Assembly (NCBI GenBank): GCA_963693055.1
Contig: OY843751.1
Span: 736,001-800,000, forward strand
Reading direction: 5' to 3'
Origin: a bacterium
GTDB lineage: Bacteria > Zhuqueibacterota > Zhuqueibacteria > Residuimicrobiales > Krinioviventaceae
Length of the DNA stretch: 64,000 bases
Shown: piece after piece, positions 50,239 through 54,197 of the stretch
How the letters are laid out: the number at the start of each line of letters is the position of its first letter
Numbering within the stretch: position 1 is the stretch's first letter
Program-made: the position numbers and the translations under genes
The notes under the pieces: model-generated
The model's input: the letters and a program-made list of their open reading frames with translations, nothing else
Database searches by the model: none
What the model was told of the DNA's origin: nothing

Positions 50239-50462
50239 TGACTGTCTCCTTTTACAATAGAAATCTATTATGTCCATTTGGAGGCCAATAAATTATATAT
50301 AAGCAATTCCTAATATTGCAGGTAAGGACAAACCCTGATATTTTTTCCCATGGCCTTGTTATGTAATTATATGATTTTCTTTGATTGTGTGCAAGTTAAA
50401 TATTTGTTTTTTATAAAATATGCAACCATGTCCGGCAATGAGAACCGAACATGGTTTGCAAT

Positions 50463-50774
50463 TCAGGACGAAAATGCCTGATGTGCATCAATGCAACCGA
50501 GTTCAACTGCTTCCTGTAAAATATCAACATGTCCCAATCGTTTAAAATAGAGGGACGCATAATTGCGTTGTACCAGGCTGCCTTGAAATAAATAGTAGCG
50601 AATTCTTGCACGGCCTTCCTGCGAGTCAACCAGTCCCAGCGCGTAATCAAGAATTTTATAGCTGCCAATACCTTTGGCGTCGTTCAGATACTGCATCAAA
50701 ATGTCAATATTTTCTGCAGTGCCTGCTTTTGCTATTTGGCTGAGTTTGTCCATGGTTAACAGGTGGGTCGTCAT
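50463..50774 (-). CDS. Hypothetical 103-aa helical protein downstream of the tandem attenuators
   Basis: Strong RBS (GGGAGGTGG) before ATG 50774; no family recognised. Confidence 0.75.
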   Translation of the reverse strand: MTTHLLTMDKLSQIAKAGTAENIDILMQYLNDAKGIGSYKILDYALGLVDSQEGRARIRYYLFQGSLVQRNYASLYFKRLGHVDILQEAVELGCIDAHQAFSS

Positions 50775-50808
50775 TTTACCACCTCCCTTTCTTGAGTTAG
50801 TTTATATC

Positions 50809-50845
50809 AAAAAAAAAGCCCCGTTCTTTGCGTGAACGGGGCTTT
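50809..50845 (-). terminator. Attenuator terminator 2
   Basis: Minus strand AAAGCCCCGTTC-ACGCAAA-GAACGGGGC followed by T9. Confidence 0.9.
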
Positions 50846-50867
50846 AATGAAAAGATAAAAGTGCCTT

Positions 50868-51032
50868 TTATGGCCCCGTTTTATTTAAAATATCGTCAGT
50901 GCAATCACAATCATCATTCATGGTATCTACAGCATCAAATACATTCGAGCAAACCGCGCGAGTTCCAATGCAGATGGATTTGTACATGTTGTCTATGATG
51001 TTTATGAAAATAGTTGATTTGTTGAATTGCAT
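50868..51032 (-). CDS. Asp-rich leader peptide 2 (54 aa)
   Basis: AAGGA RBS; manual translation MQFNKSTIFINIIDNMYKSICIGTRAVCSNVFDAVDTMNDDCDCTDDILNKTGP*. Its 3' end (AACGGGGC) is complementary to the 5' arm of terminator 2. Confidence 0.75.
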   Translation of the reverse strand: MQFNKSTIFINIIDNMYKSICIGTRAVCSNVFDAVDTMNDDCDCTDDILNKTGP

Positions 51033-51054
51033 GATTTTTCCTTGTATATAAATG

Positions 51055-51090
51055 AAAAAAGCCCCGCTCCTGATTGGGAACGAGGCTTTT
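51055..51090 (-). terminator. Attenuator terminator 1
   Basis: Minus strand AAAAGCCTCGTTCC-CAATCA-GGAGCGGGGC followed by T6 (two G-U pairs in the stem). Confidence 0.85.
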
Positions 51091-51111: not shown

Positions 51112-51225
51112 TTATTGCCTCAATCCCAGCGGTGCATTATCATCAATATCAAAATCAACAACATCAAAGCAGACTGGTGCCCATGCATTGATAATAATGT
51201 TGAGATATGTTGTTGTTGTTTTCAT
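51112..51225 (-). CDS. Asp-rich leader peptide 1 (37 aa)
   Basis: Manual translation MKTTTTYLNIIINAWAPVCFDVVDFDIDDNAPLGLRQ*. Its 3' end (TGGGATTGAGGC) is complementary to the 5' arm of terminator 1. The AAGGA RBS is rather far upstream (about 15 nt). Confidence 0.7.
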   Translation of the reverse strand: MKTTTTYLNIIINAWAPVCFDVVDFDIDDNAPLGLRQ

Positions 51226-51265: not shown

Positions 51266-51293
51266 AATATAGCAAATTTTTAGATTAATGCAA
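51266..51293 (-). promoter_or_regulatory. Sigma70-type promoter for the attenuated transcript
   Basis: TTGCAT, 16-bp spacer, TATATT, with an extended -10 TG; about 40 nt upstream of leader 1. Confidence 0.55.
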
Positions 51294-51305: not shown

Positions 51306-54128
51306 TTATTTTAATAAAACCATCCTCTGAATAGATGTGTATGGATCTGCTTTTAGTTTTAACCAATAAATACCGGAACTGACGGGTAAATTTGATTGAT
51401 TGGTCCCGTTCCAGAAAAGTTGATGACTTCCCAAAGACATATTCCTGTTAATTAATTCTTTAACAACTCTGCCATAAACATCATAAATTGTTAGTTTTAC
51501 TTTTGCAGGTTTTGGCAGGTCAAAGCGGATGCTGGTTCCTGCATTAAATGGATTGGGGAAATTGGGATAGAGTTGAAATTCAATCGGCAGTTTTTCATTG
51601 TTATCATCAATTCCTGTGCCTTTTTGAATAGAGAAATTAAAGGCTTGCTCGCATTCAGTTAAATGATCGTCCAGGTCAATTGCGGTAACGCTCCACTGGT
51701 AGCTGTCACCTGCTAAAAGATTTGTGTTGATCTGAAAGGAATTGCCTACAACATATTGGTCAATAATTATCGTTTCAATTCCTGTCATTTGTTTTACAAC
51801 AAGATGATAAGTAATGTTATCACCGAGATCATTATCGTCCGCCTTTTCCCATCTTAATTCCGGAGTTAATGTGGAAAGTGTACTTTGGTCTTCCGGAGTC
51901 ATGAGCCGAAATCCATCAGGGGCCTTATTGTCAATAAACATTGCACCCAGATCCCAATTGCCGAATGTCTGGCGGTCGCGACCATAATAATCTGTTAAGA
52001 ACCAGTCAAGTGCCGGTCCATTTTGGCGGGCAGGAGAAAGTGTCAGCAGGTAAACATCTGATACCATGTTGGGCATATTGTTACCATACACAAGTAAAGG
52101 ATCACCATCGAGTGAACCTAAAGTATTAATGGTGTTATTTTTATTTCTCCAGTATTCCTGGAACAGTTCTATGGTTGAGAAATTTCGTTCATAGGTAGGC
52201 AGTTCTTCATCGCGGTAATGAATAATTGCATTATTAACCGATAATGGGCCCGTACCATATAAATTATGGTGCATAATATGCGAGTGTCCGGCAACATCTG
52301 CAATGCTGAGCTGGAATTCGGCATTGTTGTAAATAATATTGCCAATAATCGTTTCAGCTTCAATCTGCCGTGACCCGGATATTGTGGTTACTAAAGCCAG
52401 TCCTGCTTTGTAACCTGCATGCTCGCTTATTCCATTTGCCACAATGGTATTGTAAAGAACTTGGCAATATTTACTGGCAGTTATAGCGATACCTGCTCCT
52501 TCATTTCCGAAACAGATATTATTATAAATCCAGGTGCTGTCTGCGCCCTGATCTGCAATAATGCCATTGCCGTCGCTCCACCAGTCGGCACCCACAGTGC
52601 CGGCAGTACCCTGGTTATTATTGCTGCTAACATTACGTTTGACAATATTTCCTATACTTGTTCCATGAATGTTAATTCCGCTGCAACCGCCATGCATCCA
52701 GCCATTGTTCCAGACCGAGTTATGTTCAACAATATTGTGTGAGCCATTGACACTGATACCCCATGCGCCATTGTTCAGGCTTTGATTATGAGAAACACTG
52801 CCATTATTTGAATTGGATAACGATAATCCCGAGGCACCGCAATCCTGGACCACATTGTTTTCAATAACAATACCGGAAAGGGGAGAATCTTCCGAATATA
52901 CATAAATACCATGACCGGCCCGACCACCGTCTTTGGGATATTTGATCCATGAACTGTCGTATTCGGTTTTATCGATAGTAGCGGGGTAGCTGATTTTACT
53001 GATAGTATTTTCATTAATTGTTATATCGTTTGTGTTTTGAACATGTATTGCAGAAAAACTGTTCACAATTTCAAAGCCCGAGTTATCGGGATCTCCGGAG
53101 ATATTATTCAAGATGATCTGGTTTCCTGGACCGGCATTGGTAACCGCAATATGTGAAGAATGTTGTTCCACAGGAGAGCCATTCTCCCAAAATGTGCATG
53201 ACTGAACAAGATTATCTGTCGAATTACTGCCAATAATGGAAAGGGCAGATTCTCCCATATTGTTGGAAAAGTTGCATATGTTGACTCTTGTTGTATTTGC
53301 ATGACTTAGCAGGCAGCAAATCCCTGAATTGTTGTTAAAGCGATTGTCAAAAACACTATTTTCAATGGGGATAGAGTTTGACTCTTTGAACTCATCCGGC
53401 TCTATTCCAATAGATAATGCAATGCCTGAAAGATTGGAAAATTCATTATAGGAGATATCGGTAAATGAGGTGTGGGAACACCATACACCGCGCTCGGTTA
53501 TGGTATCTGATTGTGTAAATGTATTTTTCAGAATGCGGTTATAATCTCCCGCAGAATCAAGGTATATATGTGCATCCCATACTCTTTCTACATTTCCTGT
53601 ATTGGTAAAGGTACATTCAGAGATTTCATTGTATGATGATGTATTAAAAACATGGATTGCGGCAGAACCCTGGTTATTTGTAAATGAACAATTGCTGATT
53701 TTATTGTAATGTGAATTGTCGAGCAAGATGGGTTTACGATTTTTCAAACAGTTTGCGAATATAAAATTTTGAATATGTATAAATGAGGCGTCTGTCAAAT
53801 CAAGTGCATACGTACCGTCCCATGAATCAGCTGTCAGCGTTGGGATTTCGTTTTCGTAAGCCATGATCACAATGGGATTCAGAGCGGTACCAGATGCATT
53901 AACCTCTATTTTTTCAGAATAGGTACCGTAACGAACAAAAAGTGTATCACCCTGAACAAGGTAGGGTACTGCATGAGATATTGTTTTGAACGGACCGTGA
54001 TTATCGGTTACAATCGGTGCAAGGCCATCAAATGCATCGTTACCGCCGCTTTGAGCGACATACCAGGTTTCGGAATAGAGTGTGGCTGTTGAGAATAGTA
54101 GTATAATGAGCAAGAATCGTTTAATCAT
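51306..54128 (-). CDS. Secreted parallel beta-helix (pectin-lyase-fold) protein with Fn3-like domain and T9SS type-A/FlgD-like CTD
   Basis: Signal peptide; WYVAQSGGND...GPFKTISHA...GDTLFVRYGTYSE N-cap; many Asn-rich beta-helix repeats; WDLGA; C-terminal PNFPNPFNAGTSIRF...SSGIYWLKL. Confidence 0.85.
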   Translation of the reverse strand: MIKRFLLIILLFSTATLYSETWYVAQSGGNDAFDGLAPIVTDNHGPFKTISHAVPYLVQGDTLFVRYGTYSEKIEVNASGTALNPIVIMAYENEIPTLTADSWDGTYALDLTDASFIHIQNFIFANCLKNRKPILLDNSHYNKISNCSFTNNQGSAAIHVFNTSSYNEISECTFTNTGNVERVWDAHIYLDSAGDYNRILKNTFTQSDTITERGVWCSHTSFTDISYNEFSNLSGIALSIGIEPDEFKESNSIPIENSVFDNRFNNNSGICCLLSHANTTRVNICNFSNNMGESALSIIGSNSTDNLVQSCTFWENGSPVEQHSSHIAVTNAGPGNQIILNNISGDPDNSGFEIVNSFSAIHVQNTNDITINENTISKISYPATIDKTEYDSSWIKYPKDGGRAGHGIYVYSEDSPLSGIVIENNVVQDCGASGLSLSNSNNGSVSHNQSLNNGAWGISVNGSHNIVEHNSVWNNGWMHGGCSGINIHGTSIGNIVKRNVSSNNNQGTAGTVGADWWSDGNGIIADQGADSTWIYNNICFGNEGAGIAITASKYCQVLYNTIVANGISEHAGYKAGLALVTTISGSRQIEAETIIGNIIYNNAEFQLSIADVAGHSHIMHHNLYGTGPLSVNNAIIHYRDEELPTYERNFSTIELFQEYWRNKNNTINTLGSLDGDPLLVYGNNMPNMVSDVYLLTLSPARQNGPALDWFLTDYYGRDRQTFGNWDLGAMFIDNKAPDGFRLMTPEDQSTLSTLTPELRWEKADDNDLGDNITYHLVVKQMTGIETIIIDQYVVGNSFQINTNLLAGDSYQWSVTAIDLDDHLTECEQAFNFSIQKGTGIDDNNEKLPIEFQLYPNFPNPFNAGTSIRFDLPKPAKVKLTIYDVYGRVVKELINRNMSLGSHQLFWNGTNQSNLPVSSGIYWLKLKADPYTSIQRMVLLK

Positions 54129-54162
54129 GGTTCCTTTCCGGTATTGGTAAATGCTGATAGTA

Positions 54163-54178
54163 TACAAATTGTGTGCCA
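54163..54178 (-). promoter_or_regulatory. Candidate sigma54 (-24/-12) promoter
   Basis: Minus strand TGGCAC-ACAAT-TTGTA, about 35 nt before ATG 54128; one mismatch to TGGCAC-N5-TTGC. Confidence 0.45.
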
Positions 54179-54197
54179 AATTCCAAATGAAAAAGCG

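Follow-up and report, generated by a model that had tools for sequence, protein, structure and literature searches.

In a 64,000-nucleotide stretch of bacterial DNA (hereafter, the window), the gene for an unnamed 103-aa protein is preceded on the minus strand by two short leader ORFs in series, each followed by an intrinsic terminator. On balance, we consider it probable that the best explanation of this arrangement is a ribosome-stalling attenuator with translation inhibition or general ribosome stress as its signal. The switch is likely of a known, whiB7-type kind, while its tandem form is unusual.

Two leader-terminator units precede the gene for the 103-aa protein

The order on the minus strand is a gene for a 957-aa beta-helix protein, a candidate promoter, leader 1, terminator 1, leader 2, terminator 2, the 103-aa gene, a hairpin and a gene for a PAS histidine kinase. 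The relevant parts are:

51266..51293, minus strand: candidate promoter read from the sequence; TTGCAT (51293-51288), 16 nt, TG-n-TATATT (51271-51266)
51112..51225, minus strand: leader ORF 1; 37 aa, five Asp in codons 21-29, one Cys
51117..51130, minus strand: antiterminator arm 1; formed by the final codons of leader 1, predicted partner the 5' arm of terminator 1
51055..51090, minus strand: intrinsic terminator 1; its 3' arm (51071-51060) is able to pair with the 5' arm of terminator 2
51039..51043, minus strand: ribosome-binding site AAGGA of leader 2; 6-nt spacer, kept in the same-genus genome G001
50868..51032, minus strand: leader ORF 2; 54 aa, eight Asp, four Cys
50892..50936, minus strand: Asp/Cys cluster; codons 33-47 of leader 2, predicted stall zone
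50873..50880, minus strand: antiterminator arm 2; AACGGGGC, the same sequence as terminator 2's 3' arm
50809..50845, minus strand: intrinsic terminator 2; 12-bp stem, 7-nt loop, 9 U, -20.6 kcal/mol
50781..50786, minus strand: ribosome-binding site GGAGGT of the regulated gene; strong, 6-nt spacer
50463..50774, minus strand: regulated gene for the 103-aa protein; unnamed cross-phylum family, predicted HEAT-like helical repeat
50424..50456, minus strand: 13-bp hairpin directly after the 103-aa gene

The candidate promoter (51293-51266) falls under the threshold of a consensus scan, which returned zero promoter-like sites on the minus strand from 51750 to 50629 and also misses the likely upstream promoter. 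Its TTGCA is invariant in the alignment of G000, G001, G005 and G014, and similar -35/-10-like pairs lie upstream of leader 1 in these genomes. The AAGGA of leader 1 is ~15 nt from the ATG, a weak spacing. The hairpin at 50424..50456 is likely the end of a one-gene transcript, and the downstream kinase gene has its own promoter-like site at 50393-50366. The 957-aa protein (window 51306-54179, minus strand) has a FlgD/secretion-type C-terminal domain; no terminator lies between its gene and the leader promoter, so that read-through into the leader is possible. Rfam gave no match at the gathering score (0/46; best 32 bits vs. 43 required), and a plasmid search gave no match.

The arm copy and composition of leader 2 exceed chance

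An earlier note on this DNA had described leader 2 as rich in Asp and Cys and its final codons as a copy of one terminator arm. Both descriptions hold. Residues 33-47 contain seven Asp, the 54-aa peptide contains four Cys, and AACGGGGC is present at 50880-50873 (codons 51-54) as well as at 50825-50818 (3' arm) and nowhere else on the minus strand of the window; GCCCCGTT, at 50842-50835, forms the 5' arm of terminator 2. The AAGGA, said to be well spaced and to follow terminator 1 directly, is indeed located 6 nt before the ATG and 11 nt past the U run of terminator 1.

With 77 copies of AACGGGGC on both strands of the 6.5-Mb genome (13 Mb), ~0.0004 copies are expected per 60 nt. Among 200,000 random 54-aa segments drawn from long ORFs of the genome, 0.05% had seven Asp in 15 residues, 1.0% had four Cys, and none had both. 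Compared with 200 dinucleotide shuffles, pairing between leader and arm was stronger than expected in unit 2 (p = 0.03) and in unit 1 (p = 0.005), which has the same build with a longer arm copy (-20.4 kcal/mol for the duplex of antiterminator arm 1 vs. -15.9 kcal/mol in unit 2). In total, we conclude that the arm copy and the composition of leader 2 are real and beyond chance. Because the peptides of leaders 1 and 2 align locally (p = 0.0005), leader 2 is likely a paralogue of leader 1, and the pair would have arisen by duplication.

We compared both leaders and the regulated gene with their counterparts in G001. Leader 1 has 34/37 identical residues (dN/dS 0.25). In leader 2, 42/53 aligned residues are identical, all indels are in-frame, and dN is 0.11 and dS 0.57 (dN/dS 0.19; Fisher p = 0.0003). 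The 103-aa gene has a dN of 0.008 and a dN/dS of 0.02, and the dN of leader 2 is higher (p = 0.00004). As judged from these substitutions, the leader 2 peptide is under purifying selection that is far less strict than that on the 103-aa protein.

Folding predicts a kinetic switch set by the position of the leader ribosome

We folded the RNA with a ribosome at successive positions in the leader at the stage at which the 5' arm is out and the 3' arm is still unmade, assuming a footprint that extends 12 nt past the P-site codon. In unit 2, P(antiterminator) was 0.86-0.97 with the P-site at codons 5-47 or with no ribosome; over codons 50-55 it was 0 (at codons 50, 53 and the stop). Without a ribosome, the predicted values were 0.96 for unit 2 and 0.85 for unit 1, and the switch point of unit 1 lay between codons 29 and 32. 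The last ribosome position that permits antitermination coincides with the end of the Asp run in both units; in leader 2, the Asp/Cys cluster ends at the last position tested that leaves the antiterminator free. In the completed transcript, terminator 2 wins at equilibrium at all ribosome positions tested; therefore, antitermination in unit 2 would have to be kinetic, and the switch would require co-transcriptional trapping of an 8-bp helix.

These predictions suggest how the switch would operate. A ribosome at codon 50 or later would cover AACGGGGC, terminator 2 would form, and the gene would be off; with the ribosome held at or before codon 47, or absent, AACGGGGC would be free to capture the emerging 5' arm, and the gene would be on. 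With no anti-antiterminator predicted, induction would follow from a stall at any point as far as the Asp/Cys cluster, like that described for whiB7. RNA polymerase would pass only when leader translation is held up, and the most likely cause of the hold-up would be a translation inhibitor or a similar ribosome stress. The leader peptide would serve for sensing and not as a product, and the serial arrangement of the two units would lower the leak. In the weakest step of this scheme, the 103-aa protein might bind a small molecule or protect translation. The antiterminator proposed in the earlier note is supported by the folding, by the absence of promoter-like sites between 51750 and 50629 and by the conservation of the layout in relatives with different arm sequences. 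We consider it very probable that unit 2 acts by stalling-dependent attenuation and, if it does, reasonably probable that the signal is an inhibitor or general translation stress.

The two units may also interact. With antiterminator 1 kept in place, the folding leaves the 3' arm of terminator 1 free and predicts that it anneals to the 5' arm of terminator 2 (51071-51060 with 50842-50835; 12 bp, -22.4 kcal/mol vs. -15.9 kcal/mol for unit 2's own antiterminator), even with a ribosome at the stop codon of leader 2. Because this freed arm can also block terminator 2, the two gates may, according to the folding model, be coupled rather than independent; the cross-pairing would have to bridge ~225 nt of translated RNA and might form too slowly to have an effect. 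The earlier note had suggested that unit 2 is controlled by unit 1, which is plausible because terminator 1 precedes unit 2.

The genome carries classic Trp and Phe/Tyr leaders and, therefore, the organism uses leader attenuation. By pairing energy, the two window units rank first and third among the 11 matches listed in the genome. Classic-looking amino-acid leaders are at G000:C1 1871486 (-), 2710218 (+), 4335593 (+) and 3747367 (-), comprising two Trp-rich leaders, a Phe/Tyr-rich one and a Lys/Thr/Met-rich one; by eye, the genes behind them look like trpE, chorismate mutase, trpB and asd.

The layout is conserved while the arm sequences change

The 103-aa gene is present in 6/167 genomes of the same phylum. 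A leader and a terminator lie ahead of it in 6/6 and two hairpins in 5/6; the second hairpin in G099 has no leader by the positional rule. Altogether, 86 loci were examined, i.e. the 6 genomes and the best 80 of 85 metagenome matches. Leaving out 7 loci with <250 nt upstream and 3 duplicates gave 76 non-redundant loci, of which 45 have a strong upstream terminator (51 hairpins; two units at 6 loci). These loci are not independent, 27/45 belonging to one clade in a quick tree (102 columns) that shows clustering only.

By the positional rule, a short ORF ends just upstream of 50/51 hairpins, and 49 of these leaders are unambiguous; genome-wide, a similar rule places a short ORF ahead of 142/733 terminators. 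The rule takes the shortest start that gives at least 26 aa, so that some leaders, including that of window unit 2, are trimmed, and at least two rule-picked leaders (L014 and L016 unit 1) look like the wrong frame. The spacing from ORF to hairpin is nearly fixed at 16-36 nt. Pairing between the leader and the 5' arm beat shuffles (p <= 0.05) in 27/51 hairpins; the 24/51 that failed to do so are mostly GC-rich, and the ribosome scan gave no clear off zone in many GC-rich leaders. Moreover, arm and arm copy differ together between lineages.

These data bear on the possibility that there is no conditional switch, the terminators being plain terminators after small genes and the 103-aa gene being expressed by leak or from an unseen promoter. 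That terminator 2 always wins at equilibrium would fit this possibility, as would the result of a same-arm pattern search in the 167 genomes of the phylum: besides 8 known units it returned 6 other sites, of which 5/5 inspected are ordinary gene-end terminators, while the sixth follows an apparent tRNA end. However, the copy of the arm at the ORF end persists across lineages that differ in arm sequence, and the spacing is near-fixed; moreover, just 34 nt separate the U run of terminator 2 from the start codon of the 103-aa gene, and the consensus scan found no promoter-like site there. We therefore regard plain terminators as improbable. The same search, with 5 of the 6 other sites inspected, found no second gene under same-arm control.

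The remaining non-redundant loci have a PadR-type gene (14), a TetR gene (2) or a hydrolase gene (1) ahead, are fusions (8; 7 by rule and L080 by inspection) or are of other kinds (6). Thus, among the 31 loci without a terminator, the gene lies behind PadR in 14/31 and behind TetR in 2/31. PadR, TetR and MarR proteins are small-molecule sensors. As an alternative form of control, they fit with chemical stress.

Several individual loci have additional features. Upstream of the gene, L060 and L070 have Asp-containing short ORFs (two in L070) with similar GC-rich ends and no intrinsic terminator, which are possibly a translation-level version of the same control. L069 and L071 have a common palindrome upstream of the gene, in L071 before an apparent PadR remnant; it is possibly a PadR operator. 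In L003 and L004 (G005 and G014), a rho-like gene precedes the unit and a co-oriented MFS transporter gene follows it. A TTGAC element in the interval from terminator 1 to leader 2 might serve there as an internal promoter; by eye, the cross-pairing arms match in these two genomes, too. In L087 and L088, the gene is preceded by a TetR gene and by an ORF that contains an EF-Ts-like domain.

Leader composition and the nature of the signal

Among the 49 rule-picked leaders of the family, Asp is present in 49/49 and Cys in 48/49, the Cys-free leader being L024. Most leaders have one or two Asp and one Cys without a run; at least four Asp are found in 6/49 and at least three Cys in 4/49. Asp and Cys are adjacent in 33/49 leaders (shuffled mean 5.3, maximum 13), and three leaders that lose the usual Cys carry Asp-Cys two codons later. 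The last Asp is 3-10 codons ahead of the antiterminator in 41/49. Across 24 GC-rich leaders, the ATG never varies and any indels ahead of Asp-Cys have lengths divisible by three, while those after it are of 1, 4 or 14 nt and shift the frame. Taken from the alignment, this indel pattern is as would be expected of a stall zone at Asp-Cys, not of a secreted or metal-binding product.

The earlier note had also raised the possibility that the 54-aa peptide binds metal as a product in its own right. As a free product or, like CruR, within the ribosome tunnel, such a peptide would account for the four Cys and for the Cys-x-Cys amid Asp, and CruR provides a precedent for metal sensing by a nascent peptide (PMC9426467, accessible text). 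Purifying selection would fit as well, and a stalling peptide would show it too. However, the Cys-x-Cys is absent from leader 2 in G001, indels are tolerated, and dN is 0.11 vs. 0.008 for the 103-aa gene. Across the family, D/C richness is rare, with only the 4/49 leaders noted above reaching three Cys, and the frame shifts freely after Asp-Cys in the 24-member clade. The peptide has neither a CXXC nor a C-terminal RAPP, and no metal-homeostasis genes were found among the 77 neighbours scanned. The claim is thus poorly supported, and we consider a metal-binding peptide highly improbable.

A second possibility retains the switch and replaces the signal, i.e. a shortage of charged tRNA-Cys or tRNA-Asp, caused by starvation, by thiol depletion through oxidants or metals, or by tRNA cleavage, would be read at the Asp/Cys codons. 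The near-universal presence of both residues, which suits amino-acid sensing no less than an inhibitor signal, the excess of adjacent Asp-Cys, its reappearance two codons later in the three leaders without Cys at the usual place and the position of the last Asp ahead of the antiterminator would all follow from this possibility. In addition, Asp-Cys is written GAT-TGT in 29/33 leaders, including 23/26 in hosts whose gene prefers GAC (165:46), i.e. against the host codon bias in the GC-rich clade, and the accessible text on whiB7 describes a response to the lack of any leader-encoded amino acid (10.1101/2023.06.02.543512). On the other hand, the downstream gene does not encode a Cys or Asp enzyme or transporter, nor does any conserved neighbour, and L024 has no Cys. 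A single Cys, with no run, is typical of the leaders; mycobacterial Cys attenuators, by comparison, were selected on the basis of at least two consecutive Cys, according to the accessible part of that report (10.1101/834739). Finally, GAT-TGT in GC-rich hosts belongs to one clade, and its final bases are there often paired with the ORF end; we looked for a conserved or consensus helix that accounts for GAT-TGT and found none, and GAT-TGT may stem from RNA structure rather than codon-level selection. We consider tRNA shortage unlikely as the signal, although it is the leading alternative to a translation inhibitor.

A third possibility is that the acidic run itself destabilizes or stalls the ribosome, in which case the leader would report Mg2+, the supply of ABCF factors or ribosome quality. 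At least three of the six residues just before the arm copy are acidic in both window leaders, and acidic runs cause premature termination in E. coli, by which mgtL senses Mg2+ (PMC11162784, accessible text); without an anti-antiterminator, ribosomes that drop off should leave the gene turned on. By contrast, most family leaders, with their one or two Asp, are not acidic, and neither Mg2+ transporter nor ABCF genes are conserved among the 77 neighbours scanned. We judge intrinsic destabilization to be rather improbable.

For translation inhibition as the signal, we counted the residues that precede Asp. Ser, Ala or Thr does so in 33/49 leaders (shuffled mean 18, maximum 27), and at the penultimate position these residues favour chloramphenicol-type arrest, according to the accessible text of 10.1101/2021.06.17.448903; because it matches this rule, the excess was counted toward an inhibitor signal. 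A single clade of 27 loci contributes most of the Ser-Asp-Cys signal; in the window, leader 2 has Thr-Asp-Asp at codons 45-47 and leader 1 has no Ser/Ala/Thr-Asp. The GC-rich leaders have a hydrophobic run that ends at codon 9 and that, presumably, resembles residues of ErmCL. Codon 9 is the stall position in ErmCL (PMC12121999, accessible part). None of the 77 neighbours scanned is a known resistance or ribosome-rescue gene conserved beside the 103-aa gene. A link of the 103-aa gene to rtcB/prfH repair operons was not supported, as no such neighbour is among the 77 and the rtcB of the genome lies behind an ordinary gene, not behind a leader.

The 103-aa protein belongs to an unnamed domain family

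The 103-aa protein has no family above the cut-off in Pfam, NCBIfam, PHROGs or PADLOC. Its relatives number 383 at 90% clustering and form 149 clusters at 50% identity, and residues 62-79 are nearly invariant in the family. The predicted structure is a seven-helix repeat (pLDDT 91). In a fold search, the best Z was 7.0, with none >=8, and AlkD-like entries had a Z of 5.8-6.0; Foldseek gave no match for the model at E <= 0.001, and the best hit in a PDB sequence search was to designed repeat proteins, at E 0.1. In the ESM Atlas, the nearest clusters are hypothetical proteins at 0.98, recognition being below the reliable level.

In 50/51 longer proteins, the domain ends at most 2 residues from the C-terminus. 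It is fused behind TIR, SEFIR, KAP NTPase, kinase, caspase, acetyltransferase (GNAT), hydrolase or TPR domains (P0121-P0171; L046, L049, L080, L089), and a scan of 39 further long proteins found MarR in 4 and TetR in 2. From these architectures, the simplest reading would be that the domain is a binding or sensing module, and it may be an undescribed sensor domain. The TIR, KAP, kinase and caspase fusions point to defence signalling and cut against a pure drug-resistance role. In the accessible sources on the drug-sequestering domains TipAS and AlbAS, a small domain occurs alone or on a transcription regulator, like the 103-aa domain with MarR and TetR; this likeness is an analogy of architecture, and we found no match in sequence or fold.

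Comparison with known attenuators

The following comparisons rest on the accessible portions of the cited texts. The uORF attenuator of whiB7 in mycobacteria has a leader ORF, a terminator that forms on efficient translation and an antiterminator that forms on stalling, as proposed here; loss of the start codon raises whiB7 expression, and the same is predicted for the window units (10.1101/2023.06.02.543512). The whiB7 attenuator responds broadly to inhibitors and to amino-acid shortage. It is described with one unit, compared with two here, and regulates a transcription factor (10.1101/2023.06.02.543512); we found no relation between that protein and the 103-aa protein. At ermK, mef/mel and bmrCD, a drug-stalled leader ribosome favours an antiterminator over an intrinsic terminator, like in the proposed switch; these leaders control known resistance genes, whereas the gene regulated here is uncharacterized and its response to drugs is only proposed (PMC5418344). 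Unit 2 shares with the whiB7/ermK type a short ORF with a ribosome-binding site, an intrinsic terminator and a mutually exclusive antiterminator, the last as computed and, for unit 2, only kinetically.

The vmlR leader of Bacillus subtilis likewise combines a uORF, an antiterminator and an intrinsic terminator that responds to stalling; however, it has an anti-antiterminator and a stall at the start codon, neither of which is predicted for the window leaders of 37 and 54 codons (PMC9226507). For the toiL uORF of E. coli topAI-yjhQ, too, induction can result from stalls at many positions, as predicted here, but toiL acts by unmasking of a ribosome-binding site and Rho, not through an intrinsic terminator (PMC12121999).

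In the trp, phe and polycysteine attenuators, one or two kinds of residue are clustered immediately ahead of the arm copy, as in the window units (10.1101/834739), and the genome's own Trp leader has the same geometry. The codon cluster before the antiterminator is thus shared with amino-acid attenuators, but a matching biosynthesis or import gene is not: the downstream gene makes no amino acid, the 103-aa protein is in no such family and the neighbours vary. Polycysteine attenuators, moreover, act on translation and have consecutive Cys, while neither window leader has Cys-Cys (10.1101/834739). CruR has a conserved CXXC and a C-terminal RAPP, which the leader 2 peptide lacks (PMC9426467). Altogether, the biosynthetic, polycysteine, CruR and vmlR-type classes were rejected for the window units, which lack at least one defining feature of each, for vmlR as predicted by folding.

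Discussion

While the type of switch is already known, its tandem form is unusual, and it stands in front of an unnamed family. In the open-access literature, we found no description of tandem leader-terminator units in series or of such attenuators in Chloroflexi. Nor did we find, in open-access text, a description of the fused 103-aa domain, which the large domain tables of PMC7159879 might list.

Stalling-sensitive leaders usually precede genes that fix the cause of the stall. Therefore, the leader marks the unnamed family as one that likely acts in translation stress or drug response, and it makes the 103-aa gene a candidate for a new translation-stress or antibiotic-response factor. There is precedent, in the accessible text of PMC12218461, for an attenuator that flags an uncharacterized antibiotic-induced gene. 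More tentatively, as a possibility that we rate below even odds, a two-stage attenuator with cross-pairing terminators might guard a new cross-phylum stress family whose HEAT-like domain binds a compound that stalls the ribosome or a damaged component of the translation apparatus. On its own, the domain would be a sink or protector; in the MarR, TetR, TIR, kinase, caspase and KAP fusions, it would be the sensor that fires them. If this were true, the Asp-Cys leader motif would be a new arrest motif that names the signal. The leader is a ready reporter for finding the inducer of the family and, once found, this inducer might show what the TIR, kinase, caspase, KAP, MarR and TetR fusions sense.
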